Positions 9,902 through 29,528 of a DNA stretch of 64,000 bases are shown piece by piece (within the stretch, counting starts at the first letter, position 1; the number at the start of each line of letters is the position of its first letter). The position numbers and the translations under genes are program-made. Source of the DNA: Pseudomonadota bacterium (GTDB taxonomy: Bacteria > Bdellovibrionota > UBA1018 > CAIMNF01); assembly GCA_027488515.1 (NCBI GenBank), contig JAIYBN010000001.1, positions 811-64,810 on the forward strand. The letters run 5' to 3'. The notes under the pieces are model-generated. The model was not told the DNA's origin. It was given only the letters and a program-made list of their open reading frames with translations, and did no database searches.

Positions 9902-9931
9902 TCCCGCGACGACAATTCGGCAAATTTTTCC

Positions 9932-11038: not shown

Positions 11039-12206
11039 TTTTTACAGGCACACCTGGCTCTGCGGCGGGGATCCGCTTCGGATCCTGCTCGCGCACAAAA
11101 TAGAGTTTGAAGCCCGCAAAAATCTTGTTGGGGTCCCGGATCAGTTCACGGTTGTTGTCCCAGAGACTCTTCCACTTCGTGAACGTACCATACACCCACT
11201 GTGAGATCTTTTGGAGAGTGTCACCCCGCTTGATGAGATAGGCTTCGCCATTCTTGCTCACCGTCCGGACACCGAACACCTTGATCCGCAAACGGGACCC
11301 TTTGGTCAACACGTTCGGGTCGTTGATCACTTCTTTGTTTGAATCGAGAATCTCGCGCCATCGCGTGAGGTCCCCGAAAACCTCGAAGGCGATCTTCATC
11401 AAGGTATCCCCTTCTTTGACCCGGTAATCGATGATTTGGGCACCGTCTGCCGATGCCGGTCCGCGTGTAGCCCCGACAGGGACAACTCCGGTCTCCTTGG
11501 TAGAACCCGGCGACTTCAGCGGACTTCCGTCCGCATTGAGTGCCTGTGCTGACGCTGGATCTCGGGAAGCGATCGCCACCGCATCCGACCCGCCAGCCGC
11601 CTGCGCCCCCGATGGCTGTCCCGAGGCAACCCCGTTCACACCTGCCGGCTGTCCTGAGGCATCCCCGTTGACACCTGCCACTCGAGCCTGACCGGCTTGC
11701 ACACCTTTTCCATTCAAAATTGCGTTAGGGGCCAGGGACTTCCCTGGCTGTAATCCACCGGCCTGAGCCCCCGAGACCTGGGATCCCCCGGCTGTGCCTG
11801 ACCCGACCGATCCCTTCAGTCCTTGAGCGCTTCCTTTTGCCGCCAGGGCTCCGGCTGCACCTTTAACCTGGGAAGTAACCGAGACCACAGGATTGGCCGC
11901 TGAGCCGTTTTTACCCTGTGTTTGGGCCTGAGCCGGATCGAGACTCATTTGTCCCCCCGGGCCCGTAGCATCACGATCTGATGCTCCATCCGGCGGGGCG
12001 TCGTTTTTCGAAATCGGAATCGCATCGATTCCCTGCAATTCAGTGGCCACTTCCACAGGAGCGATCAATTCCTCTGCTTCGAGTGAGGACTGAATCGAGG
12101 GTTTTGACATCGGATTCAAAGTCGAGCAAGCCGCAACACAGACGCTGGCGACTCCGAAACTGATGGGGGCCCGTATCCGTTTGCTTTTCATCGCCGGCTC
12201 CTTCAA
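11022..12206 (-). CDS. LysM-domain lipoprotein with a Gly/Ala/Ser/Gln-rich low-complexity linker and two C-terminal LysM domains.
   Basis: Lipobox VAAC after the signal peptide. Two LysM motifs (YRVKEGDTLMKIA...; YLIKRGDTLQKIS...). Confidence 0.75.
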   Translation of the reverse strand: MKEPAMKSKRIRAPISFGVASVCVAACSTLNPMSKPSIQSSLEAEELIAPVEVATELQGIDAIPISKNDAPPDGASDRDATGPGGQMSLDPAQAQTQGKNGSAANPVVSVTSQVKGAAGALAAKGSAQGLKGSVGSGTAGGSQVSGAQAGGLQPGKSLAPNAILNGKGVQAGQARVAGVNGDASGQPAGVNGVASGQPSGAQAAGGSDAVAIASRDPASAQALNADGSPLKSPGSTKETGVVPVGATRGPASADGAQIIDYRVKEGDTLMKIAFEVFGDLTRWREILDSNKEVINDPNVLTKGSRLRIKVFGVRTVSKNGEAYLIKRGDTLQKISQWVYGTFTKWKSLWDNNRELIRDPNKIFAGFKLYFVREQDPKRIPAAEPGVPVKNESSR

Positions 12207-13189
12207 ATCTCCCCGACCGGGGGAGGCGGGGGAATCTCGTCCAAACGCTCGTCTGACAGGATGTCTTGCAAGCGAGTCAACTTGGATTGAGCTTCTTTGT
12301 CACTGGCCTCGCGGACGGTCCGGAGAAAATTGCGTTGCTGGATCAGATCCTCGAAATTCTCTTCCAAAACCCTGCGTGACGGAGAAGAAGTCGGTGTTTT
12401 CTTCATCTCGATTTCCACACGTCCCAACTCATATTCGGTGATCTTCAACAAATCCGCCGTCGGGTTCATCCGCATTGCGGTCTCCAGCTCGACCAGCGCC
12501 TCATTCAGTGCCTCACGAACCATTGTCTGGCCTGAACGGAGCCTCCGCGCATAGCCTTCAAGACGGATTTCCTTCCGGGAGAGCTCATCTAATGATGAAG
12601 CAGAAGACGACCCTGCTAAAGATCCGGCGAATTTGAATTCAGCCACTCGGGGAGCTGATTCCAGCTCAGCAATTCTGGATTTGAGTTTTTCATTGTCAGC
12701 CATCAGAGATTGAATCCGACCCTCGGATGATTCATTCTCCTGTCTCAGGTAGGCGGATTCTGTGGCGATCACTTCTTGCTGATCACGCAAGGAACTCTCG
12801 AGCTCCTGGAACAGTTGCAATTGGATGCTCATGGCTTGGATCTGTTTCGCCTGCTCCTGGGCGACCTTACTCAAGTGCTCGGTCTGGGTCCGTTGGCGGA
12901 TGGCGTCTTCCGAGATCCTCTTCTGCACCCCTTTCAGAGTTTGGATCTCTCCGATCTGCTTCAGGATGAGAGCTTTCATCTTTTCGACTTCTCCTTCGGA
13001 CTCGCCCACAGTGGCGCGACTCCGAACTGCGGCGAGCTCTTGCTCGAGCGCCACCAGACGGTCGATTTGATGTCCGACGTTATCCGAGGGTTGAATCGCT
13101 TCTTGGGTCATCGATTTCTGCCTGACATGTTCGGTTCTGATCATGGTTAGTACCACCTCAATCAGCGGTTTCGGTTGAACCCTCGCCAA
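12203..13189 (-). CDS. Coiled-coil protein, hypothetical.
   Basis: 328 aa with heptad-rich composition. It overlaps the upstream LysM gene by 4 nt, suggesting an operon. Confidence 0.55.
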   Translation of the reverse strand: MARVQPKPLIEVVLTMIRTEHVRQKSMTQEAIQPSDNVGHQIDRLVALEQELAAVRSRATVGESEGEVEKMKALILKQIGEIQTLKGVQKRISEDAIRQRTQTEHLSKVAQEQAKQIQAMSIQLQLFQELESSLRDQQEVIATESAYLRQENESSEGRIQSLMADNEKLKSRIAELESAPRVAEFKFAGSLAGSSSASSLDELSRKEIRLEGYARRLRSGQTMVREALNEALVELETAMRMNPTADLLKITEYELGRVEIEMKKTPTSSPSRRVLEENFEDLIQQRNFLRTVREASDKEAQSKLTRLQDILSDERLDEIPPPPPVGEI

Positions 13190-13371: not shown

Positions 13372-16300
13372 ATGCGCAAAAATAAACTGATTCTTAGACT
13401 GCGGGAGTTTTTGCTCACCCTCGGCTTCATTGCTGGGGTGAGTGCGTGTGAATTTGTTCCCCAGGAAGTGTCGATCACGACGCTCACCGGGGCAGCAGCC
13501 GAAAGAGCGGACAACGCACCCTATGCGGGATTCACCGGGATCACCGAAGCGAATACCCTCAGCGCAAATAAAGTTCAAATCAAGTGGAGCGCATCCACTG
13601 ATGAGAAAGTGATCGCTTACAACATCTATGACTCGAGCAACTTCTTCTTTCCGAAACTCCTGAAAACCGTTCTCGCTCCCGCCAACAGCTTCACCTTGAC
13701 CGGCCTGACGACGGTCACCCTGGGCACTTTCCGGGTGAAGGCCGCCACCGCCAAGAACGTGGAAGATGACAACATGGTCGACAAGTTCGCCATCCCCTAT
13801 GGCGGGATCGCCTCGGCGACCGTGACTTCCTCCACCACAGCCACTGTCAATTTCGCAGACATCAGTAACGCCGATTCTGCCGGGGTCTATTGTAAATGGG
13901 GAACGGCGACGGATTTCACCCTGGTCAAGAGCATCACCAATACCGTGGGTGTGACCTCAGCAGATTTGACCGGCCTTCTTCCCGGATCCACCTATACCTG
14001 CCGGGTCAACACGACCATCGCCGATTTCACGGACAATAACACCCTAACGGTGAGCTTCATTCCGATCGGCCAAGCCACAAGATTGCAATTTGTCACCGAG
14101 CCGGGAAGTGCACCCGCGGGAACCGCCCTCGGACCTCAACCCGTCATTCGAATTCTTGATGACAACGACAATCTGGTTTCTTCCGGGCCCGACTCGACCG
14201 CTCTGATCACCCTGACCCTGTCTGCCTTGAGTCCCTCTGCAGGCACGATCCGTGGGACCGCGACTATCGCTGCAGTCGGTGGCGTGGCCACTTTCAGTGG
14301 AATCAACTTCCAGGAAGCCGGAGTGAAGATTTTGACCGCGACCAAACAAGACACTTCGAATCAGACCGGGGGTGCGCCCAGTTTGACCAAAGATTCGAGC
14401 GAATTCACTATTGTCCCAGCAGCGGTTTCGCCTTTGGCCTCGAAATTGACTCTCACGCCAGCCTCGGTTCCAGGCTCCTATCTCATTGCCAATGGTAACG
14501 CGAGTTACACAGTCGGATTCGAACTTGCTGACCAGTATCAGAACCCGATTTCAGGGGTGAAACCCCAGTTTGCTTCCACCAATTCGAACGACACCTTGAG
14601 CCAGCCCGTTGCCAACACAGATTCGGCCGGCCTGACCTCCGGGTCGATCTCCACGACTGTGGCGGGTACCCGGACTCTCAGCATCAGCTCTCCGTCCGGT
14701 TTGACCGCCGTGACCGCCTCGGCCACCTTTGTGGCCGGCGTGGCAACCAAAGTCGGCTTTGTGCAGCAACCCCTCAACTCTCCGGCAGGGGTGGCGACGA
14801 TGAACTCGGTCCAAGCAGCAGTGCTCGACATCCAAGGGAACGTGGTGATTACCTCCAGTGCGAACATTTCTCTCTCGATCTTCAATAACGTCAGTGGGGC
14901 CAATTTGACTGGAACGACCACGGTCCAAGCGGTGAACGGAGTCGCCACTTTCAACGGTCTCGGGATCGACCGGATCGGAACCTACAAGCTGATCGCAAAC
15001 TCCGCACCACTCACTGTCGCCTACAGTAATAACTTTCAGATCGTATCCGGAGCTCCGGCGAAACTCGCCCTCTCGGGTCCTTCAAGCTTCGTATCAGGTA
15101 ATTGCAGCAACGCTCTGGCTTTCACGCTTCAACTCCAGGACATCGGCAATAACGCCGCAAATGCCACAGCGAGCACCGTGATCCAATTGACCGGTACCGG
15201 TGGCGGAGGATTCTACACCAGCTGTGCGGGAACCACTCCCGTGACGAGCGTCACCTATTCCACCGGCTCGAACACCAAGACCCTGTATTTCAAAAACCAG
15301 AAAGCCGAGAGCTTGGTCCTCACTGCTCGTGACCCGTCGCTGATCATGGCGCAGGGCACTCACAATCTGACGGTGACTCCTTCCCAAGTTTCACTCACCG
15401 GCCCGACTTCCATCATCTCGGGTCGGTGTTCTCCTGCATTCACGATCACCACATTGGGCGCTGACGGGACCACGGGAAACGTCAAAGATGAAACCCCGTT
15501 CCAGATTTCGGGCACCCTGGGAAGCGCCACCTTCTGGGAAGACTCCGCCTGTACCAACTCCCCGGTCACCAATCTCTCCTCCTTCAAAGTGGCAGCAGGT
15601 CAAAGCACCAAGGCTTTCTATGTCAAGGACCCTCTCGCTGAAACCATCTCACTGACCATCTCCGATCCGGCGAATGTGATTTCACCGGCAACCGCTCCTG
15701 TGGTGGTGTTGGTCAACGCCTCACAAATCAATTTTGTCGGACCTACCGTGGTCATCTCGGGTCAACCATCGAGTCCTTATACAGTCACTTTGATGGACTC
15801 GCTTGGGAATCCCGTTCAAGCGCCACAAAACGTGACCCTGAACATCTCAGGATTGACGGGCACACAAGCGGCGTTCTACAGCAATCCGGCTGCCACGACT
15901 TTCCTCGGTTCGGCATTTTCCATTCCGCAAGGCGCTGCCAGCCAAATGATCTACCTGAAGGACATGACTGCAGAGTCCATCAGTGTCAAGGTGGTCGATC
16001 CGGCAGGAAACCTTGCTGATTCCGCAACGATTCAAATCAAAATCTCCCCGTCCGGCATGACACTGGCCGGACCGGTTCCAGCCAATTCCAAAACCAACAT
16101 TTGTGCCGGTCCGTTTACACTGAGAACCATCGATGGTGCGGGTAATGCAGCAGGAGCGGTCACACCGATCACCGCGGGTCTGACGGGTGCCGGATACGCC
16201 GGGAAATTCTTTAATGACAGTGCTTGCTCGAATGAAATCACACAAGTCAATTTCGCAGAAGGCGTGAGCACCCGGACTTTTTACTTCAGAGGACTTTATC

Positions 16301-19251
16301 CGGACAGCTCCTCATTCTTGGCTTCAGATTCCGCCTCTCCCCCCATTTTGACTCCAGCGCAACTGTCTTGGACGGTAAGCGCTTCGCCGGGCTGGATCGG
16401 TTCCGGTCTCGGTCGTGGGGCCGGTGGTACCGCAACCGAAACCGAGGGCTCCCCTATTCTTTGGCAAAGCGGTAAAACACCCGTCGTCGGACGGATCGAT
16501 GCTCCAACCGGCGTGAACGCACTCGCATTCGATCCCTCAAAACGTTATCTTTATGTGGCCGATGCCAACTACCATCGGGTGATCAAATACGATTATCAGA
16601 CCAATCAGTACATTGGTTGGCTCGGCATGCTCACCCGCTGGGGTGGAGTCGGTCCCACCGGAGCCAACACCTTTGCTCTCAGCAGCTCCATGGGATCCAC
16701 CGCAGCAGCCTCACTCGCCAACCAGTGCATCACATTAGCTCATAACTACATCACCCCCGGGTGGTGTCAGGGGGGTATGTCGGTGGCGACCGGCTCCATC
16801 ACTTCAGGAGGCATGCATTCACCAAACGCGGTCGCCAGTGATGGAAATTACGTCTATGTCTCAAACTCGAGCAATTACAACATCACCCGGTTCAATGCCA
16901 ATACCGGCCAGTTTACGGGATGGGTCGGGCGAATTGGGAACAACTCGGGCTTGAGCCCAGGGATTGACACTGAAGGCAACTCCCTGATGAATTGCTCCTC
17001 TTCGAATGCCAACAACTCCCCGACTCCGGGATGGTGTCGATGGGGGGGGCATAGCAATAGCTACATCCAGGTCGGAACCAGCCCTGGCTTGACCTACTCC
17101 ATGACCATCGCTACGGACCAAACCGGTGAAACGTATCTTTACACCGGGAACTACGGCATGGTTTCCAGAATCAACCTGAGCACCGGTGCATTCAGCGGAT
17201 GGATCGGATGGGTACAGCTGACTTCTACAGGAGCCCCGGTTGCTTCAACTTTGGCTTCGGCTCCCGGAGCCACCAACACTTGTGCCACCACTGCGGCCAA
17301 CAACCGGACTCCCGGCTGGTGTATCGGCGGTCAGAACTGGATGAACGGTGGAATCGGTGCCGGTGGTATGGGTGCTATGGGTGGCGTCTGGGCGGATGAA
17401 GCGAACAACATCCTCTATTCCTCGATGGGCAACAATGGCGGGACCATCTACAAACACAATCTCACCACCGGGGCCTATATTGGAAACGTGACCTTCAACA
17501 ACTCTCCGATGGCTTTCAACGGGATCGCCCACATCACCTTTGATGGGACGTACTTCTACATTGCCGACACGAACCGGATCGCCAAGGTAGACACCAACGG
17601 TACACTTTGGGGCTGGATCGGAAAAGTCAACACCACCGCTTCCTTGGCCAATGCATCGGGGAATCCGAGCGGAACCTGCTCGACTGTCGGGGTGAACTCG
17701 AACACCACCGGCTGGTGTATGGGCGGAACCGCCAAATTCGGGATTGATGAAACCTCATTCTTTGGCCTAGGTGCCATCGCCTACGATGGAGCGGACGGAA
17801 TCCTCGTCGGTCAAGGAACCAACTTTCCGGCGATCAAGAAATTCGACAAAACCACCGGGAACTACCAAGGGATGCTGGTCAACGTCGGAGACAGCCCGGC
17901 GACCTGGACCGACTCCCAAGCCATTGCAGGGTTGCACGGGTTCGATGACAACTCCATGTACGCGCCCTCCGGGTTGCACTTCGATGCGGGCTCCAACAAC
18001 CTCTATGCCACCGAGGTCTTGGCTGGTCGCGTAAAACAAATCGATGCCCGTACCGGAGCCACCACAGGGTGGGTGGGTGCCGTCGGCGGATTTGTGAGTG
18101 GAATCACCCGGACGCTCGGTTGCGGAACCAACTCGATCGGGGTCACCTCCGGCTGGTGTTTGGGGGCGATGTTCCATCCCTCATTCTTCACCGCAAACAG
18201 CTGGACTCTGGCTCCGACCAATGCGGGTGGATTCATGTACTACCCCGCCGGGGTCACCAGTGACGGGACCTTTTTATATGTGACCGACATCGGCTACAAC
18301 CGGATCAACCGCTTCCGGCTCAGTGATGGCGCCTACCGTGGCTGGATCGGAGGCATCAGCGGTACGGCCACGACTGGCCCGGCCACAGCATCGGATTCTG
18401 CGTCCTGTACGAATGCCGTGAACCGGTTCACCCCCGGTTGGTGTGTGGGCGGATTGCCTACTTCAGGCAACGGCAACGGATACCTGAACTCACCGAGTGC
18501 CATCACCTTTGCTTCTGGTAATTTGTATGTGATTGACCAGGCCAATCACCGGGTATCTTCCTACAACGCCAATACAGGTGCCTTCAACGGGTGGATCGGC
18601 CGGGTCAACAGTGGGACTGGAATCAGTCCTGCTACGGTTACGAAAAGCGGCTGGGTTCTGACCAATGGCTGGTCGACGGGGGGTAACTCCACCAACGGCA
18701 GTTGCGGAAGCGACCCGGGCGGTGGATTTTGCTTCAACAACGGGCGGGGGGGCATTGCCTCCGATGGCGTGAAGCTTTACGTGGCCAACACCCAGAACAG
18801 TCGTGTCGACATGTTCACTCTGGCCACGGGTGTGTATGAGAAGTCTTCCTATACCCACCCCGGTGTATACACCAACGTTTGGACCACGACTCCAAACTTC
18901 GGGAATAACCTGGGACCCGCCTCCCTTGCTTTCTCGAACGGGCACCTCTATTACACCGTCGTGAACGGAACCACCTTGGTGGGCAAAATGAATGCGACCA
19001 CCGGAACCGTTCTCGGTTGGCGGGGTGGGATCGGGACTTCGCCTGCGGGCCCGGTCTCCAGTCCGGATTGCGTCGGTGCAACCGGTGTGACTCCTGACTG
19101 GTGTCAAGGTGGAGGTGCCGTACAAGGCCTCCTTCTCGGGAACTCGAACAACATCGGTGGTTTTGCGGCCCCTTACGGAATCACAGTGGACAATCACTTT
19201 GTCTACATCAGTGACGAAAACTCTCACAGGATCACCAGGTATCCGAAATGA
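13372..19251 (+). CDS. Giant surface lipoprotein of 1959 aa. It has N-terminal FN3/bacterial Ig-like (Big) domains and a C-terminal beta-propeller built from about 8 NHL-like repeats. Each repeat carries a Cys-x(6-10)-TPGWC-xGG loop.
   Basis: Signal peptide plus lipobox (GVSAC). Ig-like motif (RLQFVTEPGSAPAGTALGPQPVIRILDDNDN). NHL-like repeats (YVADANYHRV, YVIDQANHRV, NGWIG). GAAGAGG RBS. Confidence 0.85.
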   Translation: MRKNKLILRLREFLLTLGFIAGVSACEFVPQEVSITTLTGAAAERADNAPYAGFTGITEANTLSANKVQIKWSASTDEKVIAYNIYDSSNFFFPKLLKTVLAPANSFTLTGLTTVTLGTFRVKAATAKNVEDDNMVDKFAIPYGGIASATVTSSTTATVNFADISNADSAGVYCKWGTATDFTLVKSITNTVGVTSADLTGLLPGSTYTCRVNTTIADFTDNNTLTVSFIPIGQATRLQFVTEPGSAPAGTALGPQPVIRILDDNDNLVSSGPDSTALITLTLSALSPSAGTIRGTATIAAVGGVATFSGINFQEAGVKILTATKQDTSNQTGGAPSLTKDSSEFTIVPAAVSPLASKLTLTPASVPGSYLIANGNASYTVGFELADQYQNPISGVKPQFASTNSNDTLSQPVANTDSAGLTSGSISTTVAGTRTLSISSPSGLTAVTASATFVAGVATKVGFVQQPLNSPAGVATMNSVQAAVLDIQGNVVITSSANISLSIFNNVSGANLTGTTTVQAVNGVATFNGLGIDRIGTYKLIANSAPLTVAYSNNFQIVSGAPAKLALSGPSSFVSGNCSNALAFTLQLQDIGNNAANATASTVIQLTGTGGGGFYTSCAGTTPVTSVTYSTGSNTKTLYFKNQKAESLVLTARDPSLIMAQGTHNLTVTPSQVSLTGPTSIISGRCSPAFTITTLGADGTTGNVKDETPFQISGTLGSATFWEDSACTNSPVTNLSSFKVAAGQSTKAFYVKDPLAETISLTISDPANVISPATAPVVVLVNASQINFVGPTVVISGQPSSPYTVTLMDSLGNPVQAPQNVTLNISGLTGTQAAFYSNPAATTFLGSAFSIPQGAASQMIYLKDMTAESISVKVVDPAGNLADSATIQIKISPSGMTLAGPVPANSKTNICAGPFTLRTIDGAGNAAGAVTPITAGLTGAGYAGKFFNDSACSNEITQVNFAEGVSTRTFYFRGLYPDSSSFLASDSASPPILTPAQLSWTVSASPGWIGSGLGRGAGGTATETEGSPILWQSGKTPVVGRIDAPTGVNALAFDPSKRYLYVADANYHRVIKYDYQTNQYIGWLGMLTRWGGVGPTGANTFALSSSMGSTAAASLANQCITLAHNYITPGWCQGGMSVATGSITSGGMHSPNAVASDGNYVYVSNSSNYNITRFNANTGQFTGWVGRIGNNSGLSPGIDTEGNSLMNCSSSNANNSPTPGWCRWGGHSNSYIQVGTSPGLTYSMTIATDQTGETYLYTGNYGMVSRINLSTGAFSGWIGWVQLTSTGAPVASTLASAPGATNTCATTAANNRTPGWCIGGQNWMNGGIGAGGMGAMGGVWADEANNILYSSMGNNGGTIYKHNLTTGAYIGNVTFNNSPMAFNGIAHITFDGTYFYIADTNRIAKVDTNGTLWGWIGKVNTTASLANASGNPSGTCSTVGVNSNTTGWCMGGTAKFGIDETSFFGLGAIAYDGADGILVGQGTNFPAIKKFDKTTGNYQGMLVNVGDSPATWTDSQAIAGLHGFDDNSMYAPSGLHFDAGSNNLYATEVLAGRVKQIDARTGATTGWVGAVGGFVSGITRTLGCGTNSIGVTSGWCLGAMFHPSFFTANSWTLAPTNAGGFMYYPAGVTSDGTFLYVTDIGYNRINRFRLSDGAYRGWIGGISGTATTGPATASDSASCTNAVNRFTPGWCVGGLPTSGNGNGYLNSPSAITFASGNLYVIDQANHRVSSYNANTGAFNGWIGRVNSGTGISPATVTKSGWVLTNGWSTGGNSTNGSCGSDPGGGFCFNNGRGGIASDGVKLYVANTQNSRVDMFTLATGVYEKSSYTHPGVYTNVWTTTPNFGNNLGPASLAFSNGHLYYTVVNGTTLVGKMNATTGTVLGWRGGIGTSPAGPVSSPDCVGATGVTPDWCQGGGAVQGLLLGNSNNIGGFAAPYGITVDNHFVYISDENSHRITRYPK

Positions 19252-22200
19252 TGTTGAGTGGGGGTAAGCAAATTCTGATTTTGGCCCTGACTCTTCTGGC
19301 AGGGTGCAGATTCGGTGGAAAAGTCACCTACGACGGAACTCCGTACCGTGAGTACAAGGAGACTCCGATCGTGGAACAGCCGACCGTGGTGAGCCCGACG
19401 GGAAACCCGCACTATTCCCGCTCGAGCCTCTTCAGCATCGAGGGGTTTTGCATGGTCGGAGATACCCTCAAACTCGAAGGTGCCGACACTCAAGAAACCG
19501 TATGTCAGCCCGATTCGAGTTATCAGTTCACGATCCTCAAGACATCGGATGGTGTGTACCCCTTCCAGATCACCCAACTGGACCTGAACGGGAACGCTTC
19601 GATTTCCAGTCCTGTCGTATGGATCAGAAAAACCAGTGTGACTGCACCCACCATCACGAGCCCCGCAGTGAATCCATTTTTATCGGCTGGTGCATCACTG
19701 ACTCTTTCGGGGGCATGTGAGACCGGGTCATTCGTTTCACTCGGCGGTGATGGAGCTGGTTCGACCGAGTGCTTGAACTCTGCATACTCATTGAATTTGC
19801 CAAAAGCATCGGATGGTGACTACACCATCCGGGTAGTTGCTGCGGATCCGGCTGGAAATTCAGCCGAAACCTCGATCGAATGGAGGAAACACGCTCTTGA
19901 GGTTTCTCCCGCTTCCGTATCCATCCGGGTGGACACCCCGCAGGCTTTCACCATCACCGGAGGATCCGGATCTTACACCATGGCCCTGAGTGAGAATCTC
20001 TCGGGTGGAACCCTGAATCAGTCGACGCGAACTTATACCACCGGTAGAACGGCATATGTCACCGATAGCTTGACCGTGACCGACTCTCTCGGTGTCAGCC
20101 AATCCATCGGAATCACTACTTTAGCGGGGGACCCGGACCACATTGAAATTGTGAGCGGAGATGATCAGACCGTGCCTGTCGGCACCGTTTTTCCACAACC
20201 GCTGGTGGCCAAGTTGGCTGACCCCTACGGAAACGGCATTCCTTCCTACCCACTGGTGGTGGTTCGGACTTCGGGTGATGCCATCCTTTCAGGAAGCTCC
20301 ATCCGGATCACTGATGCCTCAGGGAACATCACTCTTCCCGCAACCATGGGGTATTCCTCACTTCGAAGCACTTTCCGAGTCTCTCCTCTTTCCGGATCCC
20401 TTCCCGATCTTGCAGGCAGTGGCGGAACCACCGTTTCATTCAAAGCTCGATCCTCCACATTGGGAACATCGTTATTTGGATCCGCATTCATGGCGGGGAA
20501 CACTCCCGTCTCAATGGTGGTGGCCAAGTTTGTCGACAGTGGTTTCGGTGACATCGCTGTTCTGAACCAAGCCGAAAACACAGTTGGAATTCTCATCGGG
20601 CGCGGGAACGGCCTTTTCGGAAAAATGAAAACCTACGGGCTGGGAGCCTGTTCCGGAGGAGTGAAAGCCGTATCAGGCGACTTGAACGAGGACGGACATG
20701 TCGATTTGGCGGTGGTCTGTAACGGATCCGGTCAGATTTCTCGTTTGCTCGGAAACGGCGATGGCACCTTTGCCATCGCTCAAGTGATGAACACGGTGGC
20801 AGTACCCTCTGGCTTGGTGCTGGCGGACTTGAACGGAGATTCCCATCTTGACCTCGCCACTGCATCGATGCAAGACAATGTGGCAGCAGTTCACTATGGC
20901 ACGGGAACCGGTGCGTTCGGATCGGCCCAAGAGTTCACAGTGGGGACCACCCCGGTGGCTCTGACCGTCATCGACTGGAATGAAGATGGCTTGAAAGACT
21001 TGGCTTTGGCTCACTCGGCAACCGGGAATGTCGGAGTTTTGTTCCGCAAAGCGGATGGAAGGTATGGAGACTTCACTGAAGGGTACTCCGGATCAGGACT
21101 GAACTCCATCACGACAGCCGATGCGGACGCCGACGGTCATCCTGACCTGATCACCACCAATTCCGTCGACACCAATCTGATCATCTTTTACGGTGACGGT
21201 CTTGGAAATCTCACCACGACCAGCAGCTTGACCACCGGCCTGTCTCCGAGCTCGGTGGTTGTGACCGATCTTGATCGTGACGGCAGAAAAGACCTGGTGG
21301 TGTCGAATACTGACGATATGAACCTCGGGACTTTCTATGGGGTGGGCACACGCCAGTTCAGTTTGCCTAAACTCGATTCGGTCAACGGGAGTCCGGTTTC
21401 TCTGGTGGTCTACGACTCAAACAGCGACACCGTCCCCGACATCTCTTTTGTGGATGTGGCAAACTCCACCGTCCGGGTACTTTCAGGCAACCCTCTGGGA
21501 CAGCTTGATTTTGTCAATCCAGTGGGGAATTCTCCCGCCCATCTGACATCCGGTGATTTTGATTCGGACGGATTTCGTGACGTGGTGGTGGTCAACCAAG
21601 GGTCCAATTCGCTCACCGTCTTCAAGGGCCTGGGGAACGGACATTTGACACTGAAATCGACGATCTCCACCGGCACCCAGCCAGTTTGGGTCGAAAGTGA
21701 GGATTTGAACCGCGACGGAAAATTGGACCTGGTCGTAGTGAACAAAGGGGGGAATTCGGCGGGGGTATTCATCGGAAAGGGCGACCTGACCTTCGAAATC
21801 ATGGTTCCCTACGGTACCGGTGACAATCCGTCCGGGGTGACCGTCGGAGATTTCAACCGGGATGGTCATTTGGATCTGGCCACCTCCAACCAGACCACAT
21901 CGAAGATCAGCCTCCTGACGGGAAATGGTGACGGGACCTTCAATCTCAAAGTCGACTCACTGACCGGCAGCGCTCCTGCGGGAATCGTTTCTGCAGACTT
22001 CAACGGAGACGGACTTCCGGATCTGGCCACCGTGAATTACTCTGACAGCTCGGTGAGTATCTTGATGGCGAACCCGGATGCAAGCTTTCGTGCTCCCGTC
22101 AATTATGCGACGGGTGGACTCCCGACGGGAATGGTCAGTGGATACTTCAACAGTGATCTATTGGTAGACTTGGCTGTGACGAACTTCGGAGACGGGACGA

Positions 22201-22520
22201 TCAGTGTCTTACACGGGGTTTCGGACGGATCGTTCTCAGCTCAAGTGGTTTACTCCGTGGATGCCAGCCCTGGAATTTTATTCGCCGGGGATTGGAACGG
22301 CAAAGGCCGGACCGACCTCATGGTTGCTCTCAACACCCAGAACGCTTTCGCATTCCTTCCCAGTATGGCCGGAGGGCAGTTCAATAACAGCTCGGAAATC
22401 TTCAACCAGGCTGGAGCGATTTCTGCGGTTTCGGGAACCGATCTCAATGGAGACGGGAAACTGGACGTTCTGGTGATCGATGGAACCAACAGCCTCTTGC
22501 AGGTGAGGCTCGGCCACTGA
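19248..22520 (+). CDS. Giant lipoprotein of 1090 aa, with N-terminal Ig-like domains and a C-terminal FG-GAP/VCBS (integrin-alpha-like) beta-propeller repeat array.
   Basis: The ATGA start/stop overlap with the upstream gene indicates translational coupling. Lipobox LAGC. More than 10 repeats of FG...DLNGDGHLDLA type. Confidence 0.85.
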   Translation: MMLSGGKQILILALTLLAGCRFGGKVTYDGTPYREYKETPIVEQPTVVSPTGNPHYSRSSLFSIEGFCMVGDTLKLEGADTQETVCQPDSSYQFTILKTSDGVYPFQITQLDLNGNASISSPVVWIRKTSVTAPTITSPAVNPFLSAGASLTLSGACETGSFVSLGGDGAGSTECLNSAYSLNLPKASDGDYTIRVVAADPAGNSAETSIEWRKHALEVSPASVSIRVDTPQAFTITGGSGSYTMALSENLSGGTLNQSTRTYTTGRTAYVTDSLTVTDSLGVSQSIGITTLAGDPDHIEIVSGDDQTVPVGTVFPQPLVAKLADPYGNGIPSYPLVVVRTSGDAILSGSSIRITDASGNITLPATMGYSSLRSTFRVSPLSGSLPDLAGSGGTTVSFKARSSTLGTSLFGSAFMAGNTPVSMVVAKFVDSGFGDIAVLNQAENTVGILIGRGNGLFGKMKTYGLGACSGGVKAVSGDLNEDGHVDLAVVCNGSGQISRLLGNGDGTFAIAQVMNTVAVPSGLVLADLNGDSHLDLATASMQDNVAAVHYGTGTGAFGSAQEFTVGTTPVALTVIDWNEDGLKDLALAHSATGNVGVLFRKADGRYGDFTEGYSGSGLNSITTADADADGHPDLITTNSVDTNLIIFYGDGLGNLTTTSSLTTGLSPSSVVVTDLDRDGRKDLVVSNTDDMNLGTFYGVGTRQFSLPKLDSVNGSPVSLVVYDSNSDTVPDISFVDVANSTVRVLSGNPLGQLDFVNPVGNSPAHLTSGDFDSDGFRDVVVVNQGSNSLTVFKGLGNGHLTLKSTISTGTQPVWVESEDLNRDGKLDLVVVNKGGNSAGVFIGKGDLTFEIMVPYGTGDNPSGVTVGDFNRDGHLDLATSNQTTSKISLLTGNGDGTFNLKVDSLTGSAPAGIVSADFNGDGLPDLATVNYSDSSVSILMANPDASFRAPVNYATGGLPTGMVSGYFNSDLLVDLAVTNFGDGTISVLHGVSDGSFSAQVVYSVDASPGILFAGDWNGKGRTDLMVALNTQNAFAFLPSMAGGQFNNSSEIFNQAGAISAVSGTDLNGDGKLDVLVIDGTNSLLQVRLGH

Positions 22521-22619
22521 GTCCATCCGGACACTGTCAATTTTGCCACAGTCCAGACCCCCCTCTTTTTTGCTAAACTAAAAGTGAAGGCAAGTCGTTA
22601 AGAACCTTAGAGGTTTCGG

Positions 22620-25600
22620 ATGTTTTGGGCGACTGTTTCAACAGGTTGGGGGGGATGCCTGAGAGTGGTTTTACCGCTCTTGTTGGTGGCTCTTTCTGCA
22701 TGTTCGATCGATGTCCCACTCAATGATGTCCGGGTCAAAGGGATCACTTTCACTTCACTCGAGGAATTGTCCTACAACTCCAGCCAAGCCTCGATCCGGA
22801 TCCGGGGAAACAATTACTTCCCTGACTCAAATCCCCTGACCACGATTCGCTTTCATTCGGATTCGATCTGCAGTTCAAGTCCCCTCGGAGAAGGCCCCGT
22901 CCGGACCTTCATCGATCCGGGAATCACAGCAGAAGTGTCGAGTACGCAAAAGACCGAGATTTGGGCATCGAACCATACGAATGACAAATGTGTTTACGTC
23001 ACCACCTATGACCCCCTTCATACGGCTCCTCCGGCGCCGCTCTTTCTCTCCTTTGATCCGGCTCCGCCTTCGACAGTGGTCTCTGCTCCGAGAATCTTCG
23101 GTGAGGTATCCGGCAATACCGTGAGTGTCAGCCTTTACGATGATTCGACCTGTGGTCACCTCATCGCTACTGGAAGCTCAGATGAGTTCACCACGGTCGG
23201 GATCGGACTGACTCTTGGTCCCGATCGTGAAACTGAAGTTTATGGAAGGTCCTTCGAACCGTTTGGAAACGGTTCAGCATGCGTGTTTCTGGGAGCGTAT
23301 TCACACGACTCTTCTGCCATCGGCGGGCCTGAACTCACCAGCGTACTCCCGGTTTCCCCCAATCGGACATCCACAACACCTCGCCTGTCCGGTAATCTTC
23401 CTGATGGCGGAACCCAAATCAAATTCTATTCTGATGCGGGATGCAAGGTCGAGATCAACTCCGGCACTTCGGAGGAGTTTTCGACTGCAGGGATCCTCCT
23501 CACGGTCGCTGAGAACCAGAAGCTCGGCGTATGGGCAAAAAATCTGGACGGGGACGGCCACTCCTCTTTTTGCACCTACTTGACCACCTACCAACACGAC
23601 AACCTCCCGCCGACTGCACCGGTGTTCACTTCCACCATTCCCGTTTCTCCGAGCGGTACGACCCTCTACCCCAAAGTGATAGGATCGATTGCCGCGGATG
23701 CGACTCAAGTCAGATTCTATAATAATCGGGCGTGTACTGTCGGAATCGGCTCAGGTACCCGCGCTGCCTACATCTCCACCGGGATTCCGGTCAGCGTGAC
23801 CGAGAACGACACCACGGTAATTTACGGTGCTTCGGTCGATGCTGCGGGCAATGCATCGAATTGCGTGGAATTGGCCTTCTTCGTTTCCGATACCATTCCT
23901 CCGGACCCACCGGTTTACGCCGGGACCGATCCGACTTCACCGACAAATAAAAGCTTCACTCCCAAAATCGAAGGGGGCGTTTCGGCTGATACCGAGACTG
24001 TCTCCCTCTTTTCAGACATATCCTGCCAGAGCCAAATCGGAACCGGACCTGCAACAGACTTCATTGCGGCGGGAATTCAGGTCACGGCAGGGAACAACGT
24101 TCCAACAACGATCTATGCGAAGTCCTACGACTTGGTTGGAAATGGAACCGAGTGCACCTACCTGACCACCTATGATCACTCCACCGCCATCCCACCTGCT
24201 CCCGTGTACCAGACCGCAAATCCGGTCACTCCGACCAATGTGACCAACAAGCCCTTTTTGATTGGCTCTCTTTCTCCGATCATCACGCAGGTACAACTGT
24301 TTGCCGATGCTGCTTGCACGACCATGATCGGAGCAGGAACCGCGAAAAACTTCAAATCGACCGGGATCGGAATCACCGTGGCGATGAATGCCGTGACTCC
24401 GGTTTATTCAAAAGCTCTCGACAAATACGGAAATGAATCGGAGTGTACGTTCTTCGTCAATTACACTCATACGAACATCATCCCTTCGCCACCGGTCTTC
24501 CAGTCCTACTCCCCTACCCCTCCTACGCGAATCAGCTCCACTCCAATGATCAAAGGCACGGCTCCCACCAATCCGGTCGCGATCATTCCGAGTTCCCGTC
24601 TGGTGTTTTACGACAGCCAATTCTGTGTGAACCGGATCGGTCTCGGGAGCGTTGCCGACTTTCAAGGAGGCGGAATCCAGGTCAATGCTGGGGTGAATGC
24701 GATCACTAACATCCATGCTCGGGCCTTCGATGACGCCGGAAACGGCAGTCCCTGCACCAACATGTCCCCCTACACCCATGACATCCTCTTGCCGGGTCGC
24801 CCGATTTTCCTGTCCTCTTCTCCCGGAAGCCCGTCTTACAACCGGCAAGCATTGGTCAGGGGTTACCTGGGTCCGACAAGTGACTTCCTGTCTGCTTCAA
24901 CGGTCACCCTGTTTTCGGATGAGGCTTGTACCCAGCAAATCGGCCACGGTCCAGTCGGTCTGTTCACGACCACAGGAGTCGAGGCTACCATGCTTTTCAA
25001 CACCACCACCATGGTTTACGGGTTCACGACGAACATTGTCGGGTCTGACTCCATTTGTTCGTACTTGACCAACTTCCTACACGCCCCCGAGGGTGGGAGT
25101 GAGCTGATGGCAAGTGCACTCATGAACGGCTCGGTGATTCTGTCCTGGCTTCCTGACTTCGTGGCCAATCCCGCACCGGATTATCATGTGAAGCGGTCGA
25201 CTCGCCCTGGCGGACCTTATTCCACGATCCAGATCACCAAATCTGCCAACTTCAAAGATGTCTACACCACGAATGGTGAAACTTACTACTACATCATTGA
25301 ATCGATCAACTCGACCGGAAAGAGCGTGTACTCCAACGAGGCAAACGCCCAAGCGCTCACTTCAAGACCGATCGCACCCACCTCAATCAGCGCCACTCCC
25401 GGCTCAGGGAAGGTATCCCTCGATTGGCAAGCGGACATCAAGGATTTGACCTATACCGTCCTGCGATCCTTCACATCTGGGGGTCCTTACCAAGTGCTCG
25501 CATCCCAGTTGAACACCACTTCTTACGTGGATGACACCGCTCCCAATGATCAGGCGGTCTACTACGTTGTCAAGGCAGTCAATCCGGCGGGTGTCAGTCC

Positions 25601-28600
25601 GGCATCCCCCGAAGCTTCGGCCATGGCCAAGGACCAGCCACCCGCTCCGACACGCCTGACTGCAGCTTGGGCGATCGGTGCATGCGGATACGGAACGACC
25701 GGTGTGATGTTGACCTGGAGTGCCCCGGCGTACCAGAGCGGATTCTTTGTGAACTTTGCTACCACCAGTGGCGCGACACAGAGGATTGCGCGGGTCACTG
25801 GTACCTCCTACCTTTCATGTATGCCGACTTGGGGTGGGAATGTCGATCCGAACTACCCCTTACCCCCTGACTATGAAGAATACTATACGGTAGCGGCAGA
25901 CTGGGGAGGTTACCCGGGAGCCCAATCGAACGAAGTGGTCCTGAACCATGTCATGCCCACCTTGAGCCTCACACCCGGAAATAATGAAATCGTAGTAGAC
26001 TGGACACCGGCCGGGAACGCACCTTCTTACATTCTCAGACGTGCTCTTTCGCCGAATGGACCGTGGACCGTCATTGGCAATATTTCGGGGAGCTACTACC
26101 TCGACTCCTCTGTCACCAACGGAACGGCTTACTACTACACGGTGGAGCCGGTATACGTTGCGGGAACCCAGTACGGGATCATTTCCACATATGCATCAGC
26201 CATCCCCGGTCCGAATCCGGGTGCTCCCACCAATCCAAAGCTGATCATTGCTAACAATCGCGCCTATTTGCGCTGGACCGCACCCACTCATTATGCAGGG
26301 TTCAATGTCTATTCAGCATCGGCACCGGGTGGCCCTTGGACCTTGCGGTACACTTCTCCAATCAACGAATGGCAAGACCTGGTCCCGCAATTCGGCATGA
26401 ATTACTATCGGGTCACAACACGTTGGGGCGAAAGCTATGAATCGGCCCCGACGGCGACTCTTTCATTCCGAAACGGGGTGACCACCACGATCAATGCGAC
26501 TGCCAATGCCACAGCTGTCACAGTGACTTGGAACTCCGTGATCGGGGCATCGAAGTACATTTTGAAGCGAAGCACCACTTCGAGAGGGCCGTACACGGTC
26601 ATCTCGAGCAATGCGGCCAGCCCCTATACAGACTTGGCCGTCATCGCAGACACCGCCTACTACTACGTGGTGGCCGCCGAGTTTGCTGACACTACCCAAG
26701 GACAAGATTCAGCCGAAACCAGTGCCATGCCTGGAAACGGTAAAGTCCCTACAGGCTTGACGGTCACCTCGGTCGGCTCGAACACCGTGAACTTGACTTG
26801 GGGTCGGGTCACCGGGGCGAGTGGCTATCGGGTTTACTGGGGTCTGACCAATAACGGACCCTATGACCAAATCCCACTCATGAGTTCGGTCAACTCGATC
26901 TCTATTCCGAGCTTGAATGCGGACACAACCTACTACTTCAAGGTCACTTCATTTTCTCCGGGAGAGTCGACTCGATCCGCACAAATTGCCGCAACCACCC
27001 GGAACACACCATCCGCTCCCTTGGTGGTAGCCGGAAACAACTCAGTGAAGGTGGACTGGGGCGGAGTGAGCGGGGTATCGGGTTACAATGTTCAGCGATC
27101 CACCGACGGGACTACTTTCACCACGATCGCATCGAACCTCTCGACCTTTACTTTGACTGATACAGGACTCACGAACGGACAGATTTATTTTTACCGGATT
27201 ATCGCGGTATTCTCGAACGGTTCCCAGACCTCTCCCACCAGCACATCAGTGACTCCGGGCGTGGTCCCGCGGGTCCCGGCTGGATTGGCAGTCGTCGGGA
27301 ACTCGAACGGTACCGAAATCACGCTCACGTGGGCGCCGGTCCCGGGAGCAACCAGTTATGGAATCTACACCTACCAAGGAGGCACCTACACCTCCTACGG
27401 GTCCAGCACCAACAACTCCGAGCAGCTCTTCGGGCAGGTGGAAGGGACTCCCATTTCATTTGCAGTGACCGCACTCAACGGGACGAACGAGTCCGGCTAT
27501 TCTTCCGTGGTGACAGTGGTCCCCTCGAACTCGGGCACTGCTCCAACGGCGATCATGTCTGGTAGTGCTGTACAAATCACCTGGTCGAGTGATCCGTACG
27601 CATCCGCATACACCCTGGAGCGTTCCGAAGATTCCATCAACTTCCAAGCGATCGCTACAGGGATCGCCACACTGTCCCATACTGACAGCGCAGTCATTTC
27701 GGGCCAGGCATATTTTTACCGCTACAGACCGGAATATACGGGAGGGCACATCGGAGCACCCTCGGCGACGAGCGCCCCTGTGACCCCGGGCAATTCCCTG
27801 CTGACTCCGGCAAACCTCGTGGCGAAAGCCAGCGATGTGGCCCAGGTCTCGCTACAATGGGTTCAATCTCCCAATGCTGTATCCTACAGCGTTTACCGGA
27901 GTGGCACAGCTGGCGGGCCCTATGTATTCAAGGCATCAGTGACAGCGCCGGATACATTCTATGTGGACAACACCGTCATCCCTGGATCGGCGTACTATTA
28001 TGTGGTCACTTCTGTGAATGATTCCGGGGTCAATTCTCCGTACTCCAATGAATCTGGAGTCGACTTCACAGTGAGTGTTCCTTCAGGCCTGGCAGCCAAT
28101 CCGGCCAATGGGACCACCCAGTTGAGTTGGAATCCCGCCGGAGGGGCCAACCAGTATTATCTATACCGCTCTCTTGAAGAGACCGGATCTTATTCACTGA
28201 TCTATTCAGGGGCATCCACCAGCTTCATTGATCCGGACATCACTCATGGAGTCGACTACTACTACAAGGTGGCGGCTAGGTTCTCAGGCGCGGGCACTTC
28301 TCATACCTCGGCAGCCGTCATGGCGACCGGGATCGCGACCTTGGACCTCGTAGTGCCGATCGAACTCACCGATCAACCCTTGGCGTCGGACGTGAATGAA
28401 GTGACTTTCGAGAGTACTCAAACCAGCTTCGACCCGGACGACTATGACGGAAGCAGAACCTATTCTCTTGAAACAGTGGCCATGAATCTGGACTCGACCG
28501 ATCGGAGTCTCAAGTGGGTGGATTCGAACGGAAGTGAAGTGGGTGAAGTGGTCATCACTGCCGGCACGACCGCTCCTACCCTGTTCCGGAACACCATCAC

Positions 28601-29528
28601 GATCCCGTCGGGTCTGACAGCATATCGACTCAGGTCCCAGGGAACTACTGAGCCTGCACAGCTTCAAGTGATGAGTGCACGGCTGATGGTGAAGCAAGTC
28701 GGAGCGACGCGGACGAAGCTGTACTTCCCACTCCTTTCCAAGTCTTCAACCCCGTCCTCATCTGATTCCTTGAATCCATTGCATGGCACCATGAGTACGG
28801 ACTACTCGACTCTTCCTTCAGCACAACGATTTACCAGACACCTTTCCGCTCAATCCACCCTTGGAGAGTTCAACAGCTGGGAGCTGGAAGCAGTTGTTTC
28901 TGCCCAACAAGACGCTATCGGCAGCTTTGCTCTCAGAAATTTGAGCCAGAATGCATTGGTCGAAGACTCCCAGACCTACTTCAAATCCGACACCGTCACG
29001 CTCTCGAGAGTGCCGATCTCGGACGGACTCGAAAACTTCTCCACTGCCAATGAGGACAATCAGTATGACCTTGTTGTCCGATGCGACCGTAATTGCACGA
29101 ACTCGGTACAGATCTTCAAAGCAGGCCTGTGGCTGAAGGTGCTCAACCTTTCCCAGGTAGAGGTCGTTCAACGACTCACCCTAGGCGCGTCCTATCCTGA
29201 AGGGGCTCCGGTCTTGACTGATTCGCGTGCAGTGGTTGACCTGAGTGGATATTCGAATCCATCTTTCGGACTGAATGTAACCGCCTCCACTCCGATGATG
29301 ACGATCTTGGATGTTTTGTTGTCCTCCTCGGGCACTTCGAACTCATCCACGAGCGGCCTGAACCCGGTCCCAGGATCGACTCTTTCGTTCGGATTACCGG
29401 ACATGACGACACAGGCTACGCCGATGAATTTGAGCCTCACGAACGGAGATCGCCTCGTGGTGGAAGTGAGTGGGCAGGCGGGGGCTGTGGTGCGGGAGGC
29501 GGGGCTGGTGATTCGTGCACACCGCTAA
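22620..29528 (+). CDS. Giant lipoprotein of 2302 aa. It contains about 8 tandem ~100-aa two-Cys Ig-like repeats, then about 11 fibronectin type III domains, then a ~400-aa C-terminal domain.
   Basis: Lipobox LSAC. Recurring C.YLTTY.HD..(L/I)PP.PV(F/Y) repeat boundaries. FN3 signatures (YYYVV, GVS.YS, W..V.GA..Y). Confidence 0.85.
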   Translation: MFWATVSTGWGGCLRVVLPLLLVALSACSIDVPLNDVRVKGITFTSLEELSYNSSQASIRIRGNNYFPDSNPLTTIRFHSDSICSSSPLGEGPVRTFIDPGITAEVSSTQKTEIWASNHTNDKCVYVTTYDPLHTAPPAPLFLSFDPAPPSTVVSAPRIFGEVSGNTVSVSLYDDSTCGHLIATGSSDEFTTVGIGLTLGPDRETEVYGRSFEPFGNGSACVFLGAYSHDSSAIGGPELTSVLPVSPNRTSTTPRLSGNLPDGGTQIKFYSDAGCKVEINSGTSEEFSTAGILLTVAENQKLGVWAKNLDGDGHSSFCTYLTTYQHDNLPPTAPVFTSTIPVSPSGTTLYPKVIGSIAADATQVRFYNNRACTVGIGSGTRAAYISTGIPVSVTENDTTVIYGASVDAAGNASNCVELAFFVSDTIPPDPPVYAGTDPTSPTNKSFTPKIEGGVSADTETVSLFSDISCQSQIGTGPATDFIAAGIQVTAGNNVPTTIYAKSYDLVGNGTECTYLTTYDHSTAIPPAPVYQTANPVTPTNVTNKPFLIGSLSPIITQVQLFADAACTTMIGAGTAKNFKSTGIGITVAMNAVTPVYSKALDKYGNESECTFFVNYTHTNIIPSPPVFQSYSPTPPTRISSTPMIKGTAPTNPVAIIPSSRLVFYDSQFCVNRIGLGSVADFQGGGIQVNAGVNAITNIHARAFDDAGNGSPCTNMSPYTHDILLPGRPIFLSSSPGSPSYNRQALVRGYLGPTSDFLSASTVTLFSDEACTQQIGHGPVGLFTTTGVEATMLFNTTTMVYGFTTNIVGSDSICSYLTNFLHAPEGGSELMASALMNGSVILSWLPDFVANPAPDYHVKRSTRPGGPYSTIQITKSANFKDVYTTNGETYYYIIESINSTGKSVYSNEANAQALTSRPIAPTSISATPGSGKVSLDWQADIKDLTYTVLRSFTSGGPYQVLASQLNTTSYVDDTAPNDQAVYYVVKAVNPAGVSPASPEASAMAKDQPPAPTRLTAAWAIGACGYGTTGVMLTWSAPAYQSGFFVNFATTSGATQRIARVTGTSYLSCMPTWGGNVDPNYPLPPDYEEYYTVAADWGGYPGAQSNEVVLNHVMPTLSLTPGNNEIVVDWTPAGNAPSYILRRALSPNGPWTVIGNISGSYYLDSSVTNGTAYYYTVEPVYVAGTQYGIISTYASAIPGPNPGAPTNPKLIIANNRAYLRWTAPTHYAGFNVYSASAPGGPWTLRYTSPINEWQDLVPQFGMNYYRVTTRWGESYESAPTATLSFRNGVTTTINATANATAVTVTWNSVIGASKYILKRSTTSRGPYTVISSNAASPYTDLAVIADTAYYYVVAAEFADTTQGQDSAETSAMPGNGKVPTGLTVTSVGSNTVNLTWGRVTGASGYRVYWGLTNNGPYDQIPLMSSVNSISIPSLNADTTYYFKVTSFSPGESTRSAQIAATTRNTPSAPLVVAGNNSVKVDWGGVSGVSGYNVQRSTDGTTFTTIASNLSTFTLTDTGLTNGQIYFYRIIAVFSNGSQTSPTSTSVTPGVVPRVPAGLAVVGNSNGTEITLTWAPVPGATSYGIYTYQGGTYTSYGSSTNNSEQLFGQVEGTPISFAVTALNGTNESGYSSVVTVVPSNSGTAPTAIMSGSAVQITWSSDPYASAYTLERSEDSINFQAIATGIATLSHTDSAVISGQAYFYRYRPEYTGGHIGAPSATSAPVTPGNSLLTPANLVAKASDVAQVSLQWVQSPNAVSYSVYRSGTAGGPYVFKASVTAPDTFYVDNTVIPGSAYYYVVTSVNDSGVNSPYSNESGVDFTVSVPSGLAANPANGTTQLSWNPAGGANQYYLYRSLEETGSYSLIYSGASTSFIDPDITHGVDYYYKVAARFSGAGTSHTSAAVMATGIATLDLVVPIELTDQPLASDVNEVTFESTQTSFDPDDYDGSRTYSLETVAMNLDSTDRSLKWVDSNGSEVGEVVITAGTTAPTLFRNTITIPSGLTAYRLRSQGTTEPAQLQVMSARLMVKQVGATRTKLYFPLLSKSSTPSSSDSLNPLHGTMSTDYSTLPSAQRFTRHLSAQSTLGEFNSWELEAVVSAQQDAIGSFALRNLSQNALVEDSQTYFKSDTVTLSRVPISDGLENFSTANEDNQYDLVVRCDRNCTNSVQIFKAGLWLKVLNLSQVEVVQRLTLGASYPEGAPVLTDSRAVVDLSGYSNPSFGLNVTASTPMMTILDVLLSSSGTSNSSTSGLNPVPGSTLSFGLPDMTTQATPMNLSLTNGDRLVVEVSGQAGAVVREAGLVIRAHR
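22990..25210 (+). repeat. Intragenic tandem repeat array: about 8 repeats of ~300 bp, each encoding a ~100-aa two-Cys domain.
   Basis: Periodic recurrence of (S/T)xC(T/V)(Y/F)L(T/G)(T/A)Y.H and PP(A/S/D)P(V/L)(F/Y) motifs in the translation. Confidence 0.7.
25210..28300 (+). repeat. Intragenic tandem array of about 11 FN3-encoding units, each ~270-300 bp.
   Basis: Recurring YYY(V/K)V, GxSxxS and LxWxxV motifs at roughly 90-100 aa spacing. Confidence 0.65.

Follow-up and report, generated by a model that had tools for sequence, protein, structure and literature searches.

Paired-cysteine loops between the blades of a predicted tandem NHL propeller in a giant putative lipoprotein of Bdellovibrionota

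We analysed a window of 64,000 nucleotides (the whole stretch of DNA under study: positions 811 to 64,810 of contig JAIYBN010000001.1, GenBank assembly GCA_027488515.1) from a bacterium that GTDB places in Bdellovibrionota. Coordinates are those of the window, and features are on the plus strand unless stated otherwise. The subject is open reading frame 1 (ORF1; 13372..19251), for whose 1959-residue product sequence and Pfam matches predict a lipoprotein with an immunoglobulin (Ig)-like stalk and, C-terminal to it, a double NHL propeller, and in particular the paired-cysteine loops that recur between the propeller blades. One Logan contig, SRR16126847_4993, carries an identical copy of the protein.

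The N-terminus of the ORF1 protein, MRKNKLILRLREFLLTLGFIAGVSAC, reads by inspection as an n-region, an h-region and a lipobox-like VSAC. The signal peptide so read from the sequence (13372..13449) has the lipobox-like end ..FIAGVSA before C26, and the protein is predicted to be exported as a lipoprotein. A stalk of fn3, Big_1 and Ig-like modules follows (13450..16371), delimited by Pfam and module alignment; fn3 and Big_1 were both matched, the latter at 36.9 bits (cut-off 34.9). Invasin_D3 is recorded for relatives. Set against the intimin/invasin-like adhesin plan, in which Ig repeats of Big_1 or Invasin_D3 type lead to a C-terminal binding domain, the protein has no beta-barrel anchor, and a lipid anchor seems to take its place. 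Downstream of the stalk an AlphaFold2 (AF2) model places a short N-terminal strand, SPGWIG (residues 1005–1010, 16384..16413). The model, read with DSSP, then gives propeller 1 (blades 1–6, residues 1048–1502, 16513..17877; also supported by Foldseek) and propeller 2 (blades 7–12, residues 1532–1958, 17965..19245), separated by an inter-propeller linker at junction 6→7 (17887..17973) that bears the pattern W..DD.S...P.G and was assigned from the model and the mapping of blades and junctions.

All of the cysteines in the C-terminal 959 residues, 16 in total, lie between residues 1119 and 1911 and form eight pairs with spacings from C-x8 to C-x13. Seven of the eight pairs end in (T/S)(P/T/S)(G/D)WC-x-G(G/A), and each of these seven has a GW(I/V/L/R)G strand 18–37 residues upstream. 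We compared these counts with 20,000 composition-preserving shuffles of the 959 residues. The pattern [TS][PTS][GD]WC.G occurred 6 times in the protein, against a shuffle mean of 0.00075 and a maximum of 1; C-x(8-13)-C occurred 8 times (mean 1.18, maximum 6), and the WC dipeptide 7 times (mean 0.46, maximum 5). Counts so far above the shuffles reject an origin of the motif by chance or low complexity. The motif was absent from all other reading frames of the window.

The seven homologous loops, located by sequence and model, are divided four to three between the propellers. In propeller 1 they lie at junction 1→2 (C1119-x12-C1132, ..ITPGWCQGG; 16726..16776), junction 2→3 (C1208-x13-C1222, ..PTPGWCRWGG; 16993..17049), junction 3→4 (C1304-x12-C1317, ..RTPGWCIGG; 17281..17331) and junction 5→6 (C1436-x12-C1449, ..NTTGWCMGG; 17677..17727). 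In propeller 2 they lie at junction 7→8 (C1584-x11-C1596, ..VTSGWCLGA; 18121..18165), junction 8→9 (C1679-x11-C1691, ..FTPGWCVGG; 18406..18453) and junction 11→12 (C1900-x10-C1911, ..VTPDWCQGGG; 19069..19116). The first loop has about 25 extra residues before its first cysteine (16669–16731, residues ~1100–1120), modelled as two helices; such a segment was seen at no other junction of the protein.

The remaining pair, C1778-x8-C1787 (18700..18744), is of a different kind. Most members of the window's subfamily have at junction 9→10 a canonical loop, GC-x(11-16)-GWC-xGG, followed by a conserved DPGGGF segment. The window protein and its two closest relatives, P0001 and P0002, have instead a Cys-less version of that loop (..VLTNGWSTGG, residues 1750–1771); in the window it is GISPATVTKSGWVLTNGWSTGG (18619..18684), recognized by comparison with subfamily members as the canonical loop minus both cysteines. 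The C1778/C1787 pair adjoins this loop, around the conserved DPGGGF (SCGSDPGGGFCFNNG, SCGSDPGGGFC), and was found only in the window protein among 17 sequences compared, with both cysteines missing from the other 16. As a separate pair beside a Cys-less canonical loop, it is not homologous to the other seven; speculatively, it may be a compensating new staple. The initial annotation had listed eight instances of one motif. All eight strings are indeed in the ORF1 translation, as are the strands YVADANYHRV, YVIDQANHRV and GWIG that it cited, but its seventh instance, SCGSDPGGGFCFNNG, is this different pair.

Pfam identified the propeller family: NHL (PF01436) matched the window protein at 37.9 bits against a cut-off of 20, and other family members at 49.6–228 bits. 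NCBIfam gave no match in the ORF1 protein. The NHL domain of TRIM71 was found by phmmer against PDB sequences. A unit profile built from 58 repeat units (alignment A1) matched in the PDB the PknD-derived Pizza proteins, PknD itself (1rwi, 1.7e-10), Thin, NHLRC2 and TRIM71; the strongest of these matches span only profile positions 2 to 30 or 40, which correspond to the NHL A-B-C strands.

For the structure we relied on an AF2 model made from a 45-sequence alignment (A4), with a mean predicted local distance difference test (pLDDT) of 88.5 and a predicted template modelling score (pTM) of 0.91; it replaces a mediocre 8-sequence model with a pLDDT of 69.5. DSSP of the better model shows 12 blades in the last ~960 residues. 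Eleven blades have four long strands by this count, blade 10 having three long strands and a short bridge; blade 12, after which the protein terminates immediately, is given three strands only. With Foldseek, TRIM71 NHL superposes on part of the model with a template modelling score (TMt) of 0.84 and a root-mean-square deviation of 3.5, and Thin NHL with a TMt of 0.81; both are six-bladed. The best whole-domain matches were tandem double propellers, with TMt up to 0.56, and were similar with the first model. Because six-bladed NHL domains superpose on part of it, and whole-domain matches are tandem double propellers, the C-terminal ~960 residues as modelled are two tandem six-bladed NHL beta-propellers. 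The NHL-type propeller called initially thus held up, but not its eight units: a single eight-bladed propeller is rejected by the twelve blades and by the six-bladed Foldseek matches. Nor is there one loop per blade, as had been proposed; the loops sit between blades, and junctions 4→5, 6→7 and 10→11 of the window protein have none.

The three-stranded blade 12 may find its missing strand at the start of the domain. Residues 7–10 of the modelled segment, SPGWIG, form a strand in the AF2 model (block pLDDT 80), and a W-x-G ahead of blade 1 is conserved in the family (alignment A4). Most probably this strand supplies the fourth strand of blade 12 in a 'velcro' closure, to judge from the model. 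Aip1 closes its last blade with an N-terminal strand.

An enzymatic identity was also considered: a six-bladed enzyme of the lactonase, SGL, arylesterase or strictosidine-synthase type, with the loops as active-site lids. It draws on Pfam matches to Arylesterase (26.7 bits), SGL (19.5) and Lactonase, and on the automatic annotation of some family members as YvrE. These matches are weak, however. SGL falls short of its cut-off of 26.3 and Lactonase (12.7) of its cut-off of 21.7, Arylesterase has no individually significant stretch, and the matches are short, local and confined to the generic B-strand region. By fold the model is matched best by non-enzymatic NHL domains, and a lipid anchor, long Ig stalk and terminal head make an adhesin architecture. 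We find an enzyme of this kind scarcely credible.

The repeat period is ~63 residues in P0004, the most regular member of the family, and 83–152 residues in the window protein, both outside the 40–45-residue NHL norm. The excess is the insertion between strand D of one blade and strand A of the next (D→A'), while the blade core stays NHL-like. In every loop the order is the same: C strand; a hairpin TG..(F/Y).GWIG, which includes strand D; coil; first cysteine; 8–13 residues; TPGW-Cys2-x-GG. After each loop comes G.G.G....P and then strand A of the next blade. In the AF2 model strand D extends 3–6 residues past GWIG. In ordinary NHL domains, as the TRIM71 alignment shows, the D strand leads almost straight into G.G.G.F..P.G, and therefore the motif amounts to ~30 or more residues inserted into the D→A' connection between blades. 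The seven canonical loops are modelled alike, with a short turn at the first cysteine and bridge residues ahead of TPGW, at WC and past GG, and most 10-residue blocks of the loop junctions have a pLDDT of ~85–95. By propeller convention the top 'cup' face, where the binding or active site commonly lies, is made up of the D-A and B-C connections (PMC6107167). Since all of the loops are in D→A' connections, the loops of one propeller are, by this topological argument, all on one face, in agreement with the single face first suggested for them.

All blades share a C-D hairpin, D..TG...GW(I/V)G, in which the tryptophan hardly varies, for example at 18322–18354 (residues 1651–1661, SDGAYRGWIGG). 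It may be nearer to the tryptophan-docking hairpin of PQQ/BamB propellers than to a typical NHL D strand.

We searched for relatives with the unit profile. Exhaustive hmmsearch against 1.84 billion representatives gave 47,205 matches at E ≤ 1e-3, which are NHL proteins generally, and 720 at E ≤ 1e-30. A word-index search found only nine relatives, and with the unit profile only six short fragments, so that word-index searching strongly under-reports the family compared with the exhaustive search. Among the proteins examined for loops (the window protein, the word-index relatives and the best 150 representatives), 130 carry three or more, which puts the family at no fewer than 130 proteins. In the source records family members are named either 'hypothetical protein' or 'sugar lactone lactonase YvrE'.

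The dominant arrangement, writing L for a junction with a loop and a dash for one without, is LLLLL-LLLLL-: twelve blades, and five loops per propeller. Canonical members have a loop neither at junction 6→7 nor after blade 12. Junction 6→7 is the conserved loop-less linker W..DD.S...P.G, which fits a crossing between propellers. Single-propeller members with LLLLL- exist (for example P0071, P0076, P0077, P0086, P0102 and P0103), and a single 12-bladed ring was rejected. The window protein shows LLL-L-LLL-L-, common to a subfamily of ~1900–2020 residues (P0051, P0058, P0064, P0073, P0074, P0087 and others) in which junctions 4→5 and 10→11 are loop-less throughout.

We scanned GTDB, with one genome for each species, using eight closer units and the pattern [FLI]TPGWC[TLV]GG, and confirmed 48 loci, all in metagenome-assembled genomes (MAGs); as a scan with one peptide pattern this is a taxonomic sample, not a census. 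Bdellovibrionota MAGs account for 39 of the 48 (Bdellovibrionales, Pseudobdellovibrionaceae, Bacteriovoracaceae and Oligoflexia). The others are 3 Myxococcota, 1 Bacillota and 5 labelled just Proteobacteria, Pseudomonadota or Deltaproteobacteria. The best genome match, 92% identical over one unit, is labelled 'Proteobacteria bacterium'.

The family allowed us to ask how the two cysteines of a loop behave together. In 1007 aligned junction segments from 130 proteins, two cysteines were present in 986, none in 20, three in 1 and one in 0. Independent loss at ~2% per cysteine would instead predict ~39 single-Cys loops and 0.4 double losses. The pair thus behaves as obligate, in keeping with the disulfide-stapled loop that the initial annotation thought probable. 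Most often the spacing is C-x12-C (532 cases) and the ending TPGWC (431 cases). Loops beside a lost loop, such as those around junction 9→10 of the window, itself a double loss, retain both cysteines; the partner of each cysteine is therefore within its own loop. Over the propeller region the cysteine count was even in 110 of 123 proteins, and the odd counts examined came from stray single cysteines in loop-less junctions and none from canonical loops. Secreted Bdellovibrio proteins are on record as having structural disulfides (PMC10792529). Given the joint presence or absence of the two cysteines, together with the predicted export signal, each pair very likely forms an intraloop disulfide.

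The pairs might instead be metal ligands, or thiols for redox or cross-linking, for example in an inter-loop Cys4 site or in Trp-Cys chemistry. The both-or-none pattern shows merely that both cysteines are needed together, and a tryptophan precedes the second cysteine in 395 of 412 canonical units, as such chemistry might have it. But whole-loop loss spares the neighbours, which argues against inter-loop Cys4 sites; no histidine, aspartate or additional cysteine is conserved in the 412 units, and metal sites are rarely made from two thiols alone; and the protein bears an export and lipidation signal. We regard non-disulfide roles as highly improbable and keep to the disulfide.

The consensus of the 412 canonical units is SPRGIAVDGTYLYVADSGNHRIQRYDLSTGAFVGWIGRISTTPTGGAAGCTGAAVGGFTPGWCTGGTSTSGTGDGGFNSP, and that of the loop GWIG-x-(I/V)-x3-PTGG-x2-G-C-x8-TPGW-C-x-GG. 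Conservation was measured as identity to the window of the 44 other sequences in alignment A4. The paired cysteines had 94% identity, TPGW 70% and xGG 57%; the long beta-strands had 38%, other loops 20% and the loop interior 16%. The Cys/TPGW/GG frame is thus the most constrained element of the domain, and the interior among the least constrained. A constant frame around a variable interior fits a rigid display scaffold, and it fits an architectural brace with a spacer equally well.

The second of these is the sole serious competitor to a binding role, and it bears on function, not on structure. The loops would be purely architectural, bracing blades or thickening the rim, with any binding left to other surfaces or domains. 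An invariant frame against a low-information interior rich in small residues speaks for it, and the window's subfamily has dropped two or three loops yet kept the domain. However, topology puts the D→A' connections on the face where propellers canonically bind, five insertions of ~30 residues per propeller must remodel the cup face, and a variable interior on a fixed scaffold fits a recognition surface too. We consider a purely architectural role unlikely, and treat the loops as a putative ligand-binding surface.

Two further giant or large genes follow ORF1, assigned by Pfam and synteny. The start of a gene for an FG-GAP/VCBS propeller lipoprotein (1090 residues, 19248..22520) overlaps the ORF1 stop in an ATGA, and beyond it is a gene for an fn3-rich giant lipoprotein (2302 residues, 22620..29528). 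By inspection both of these proteins also have lipobox-like ends, LAG before cysteine and LSA before cysteine. Besides the window (13372–29528), two metagenomic contigs with subfamily members, L050 (10001–25991) and L052 (3726–25868), carry the three genes in this order (NHL giant, FG-GAP/VCBS, fn3 giant), and each contig has a tandem duplicate of the NHL giant. There was no such three-gene cluster around P0016, which has the canonical pattern, or around P0005.

We interpret the ORF1 product, with good though not complete confidence, as a surface adhesin whose distal head is a pair of NHL propellers with disulfide-stapled D-A loops, borne on an Ig-like stalk and acting with the co-encoded lipoproteins. 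The product would be an exported lipoprotein in which the stalk carries the double propeller at its end, with Cys-pair insertions placed regularly at the D-A junctions. A disulfide would fix the shape of each insertion, and in the canonical form a ring of five stapled loops per propeller would build up the cup face. The window protein appears to have lost two loops entirely (4→5 and 10→11) and the cysteines of a third (9→10), with a new C-x8-C nearby. Anchored by its lipid, the double propeller would be the binding head, and in a Bdellovibrio-like bacterium it would work alongside the giant FG-GAP and fn3 lipoproteins. Some points weigh against this interpretation: the lipoprotein call was made by sequence inspection; the 20 double-loss junctions partly share phylogeny; and the variable interiors, rich in glycine, alanine, serine and threonine, may be plain unconstrained spacers.

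A bolder extension would make the loop rings a diversifiable recognition surface and the three-gene cluster an unrecognised attachment apparatus with which Bdellovibrio-like bacteria contact prey or substrate. We offer it as speculation and think it improbable. Little is yet understood of target recognition by Bdellovibrionota (PMC10769870). Should the loops form a binding surface, they would be candidate specificity determinants.

The domain can be set against several known systems. It shares with NHL propellers (PF01436; TRIM71/LIN-41, Brat, Thin, the M. tuberculosis PknD sensor and Pizza) the blade signature P.G.a.D..g.lYVaD..N.Ri, four-stranded blades and the six-fold ring, the model superposing at template modelling scores of 0.81–0.84. 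Unlike them, it has units of ~63–150 residues instead of the ~42-residue blades of known NHL domains, an invariant Cys pair within a D→A' insertion of ~30 or more residues, and two propellers in tandem, probably closed by the N-terminal strand. Two propellers per chain are also seen in Aip1, EML-type proteins, UTP tandem WD40 domains and LRP6 YWTD pairs. Those, however, are built of WD40 or YWTD blades, arranged 7+7 or 6+6 with EGF spacers, and have no sequence relation to the Cys-loop family and no Cys loops at each junction.

The NHL propeller of NHLRC2 has unusually long coil segments on its 'cup' face, running from strand D to the next strand A (PMC6107167). These segments differ from the loops described here in being no conserved repeated motif and in having no Cys pair, and NHLRC2, a eukaryotic protein of the cytosol, has just one propeller. 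Closer in placement are P0008 and P0009, Actinobacteria-like NHL proteins with a Cys pair at the same insertion site after the D-strand FG (FGK.VN.GAG.PD.CT..T.C..G). Their loop is much shorter (C-x2 to C-x6), with no TPGWC-GG frame and no GWIG. This hairpin seems to be another, independent kind of Cys-braced NHL blade. Because a shorter Cys hairpin fills the same junction in P0008 and P0009, Cys-braced D-A connections are, on sequence comparison, a recurring solution, of which the Cys-loop family is the most elaborate and best conserved form.

The Cys loop is covered by none of the models in Pfam-A (2025) or NCBIfam (2026), the unit-profile search of PDB sequences gave no match to the loop itself, and in the full-text literature we found no description of a TPGWC loop or of Cys-looped NHL blades. 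The repeat alignment and profile search that the initial annotation had proposed thus turned up no known described repeat family covering the loop, and its view of a regularly inserted, non-standard feature stands: neither a curated family model nor a PDB sequence includes it. What we describe is an undescribed and structurally modest variant of a well-known fold, no surprise to a propeller specialist.

The NHL blade with a Cys-stapled D-A loop is nonetheless a clean, easily modelled repeat missed by domain libraries, and a dedicated profile would mend annotations now reading 'hypothetical' or, mistakenly, 'lactonase'. The family marks many giant surface lipoproteins of Bdellovibrionota, mostly known from MAGs only. 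For protein design it offers a natural symmetric propeller showing a stapled loop at every blade junction. The findings are thus relevant to curators of repeat families, to those working on Bdellovibrionota surface proteins and to designers of symmetric propellers.

Some observations were made on other parts of the locus. Within the ORF1 stalk, residues 557–1000 (15040–16371) make up four tandem Ig-like modules of ~110 residues, which we aligned manually with MAFFT; self-BLAST of the stalk returned no repeats. Three of the four modules have a C-x39-41-C pair, and the third (residues 776–889) is without both cysteines, a both-or-none behaviour as in the propeller loops.

The N-terminal ~750 residues of the fn3 giant (22620–~24900), for which Pfam has no family match, contain about eight tandem modules of ~95 residues with two cysteines each, in the pattern ..FYSDxxC...(~50 residues)...C.YLTTYxHD. 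Upstream of ORF1 and divergent from it are four open reading frames of 328–416 residues on the minus strand (8651–13189). One of the four has a LysM domain, the other three being without a Pfam match, and a LysM gene is also found upstream of the cluster in L052.

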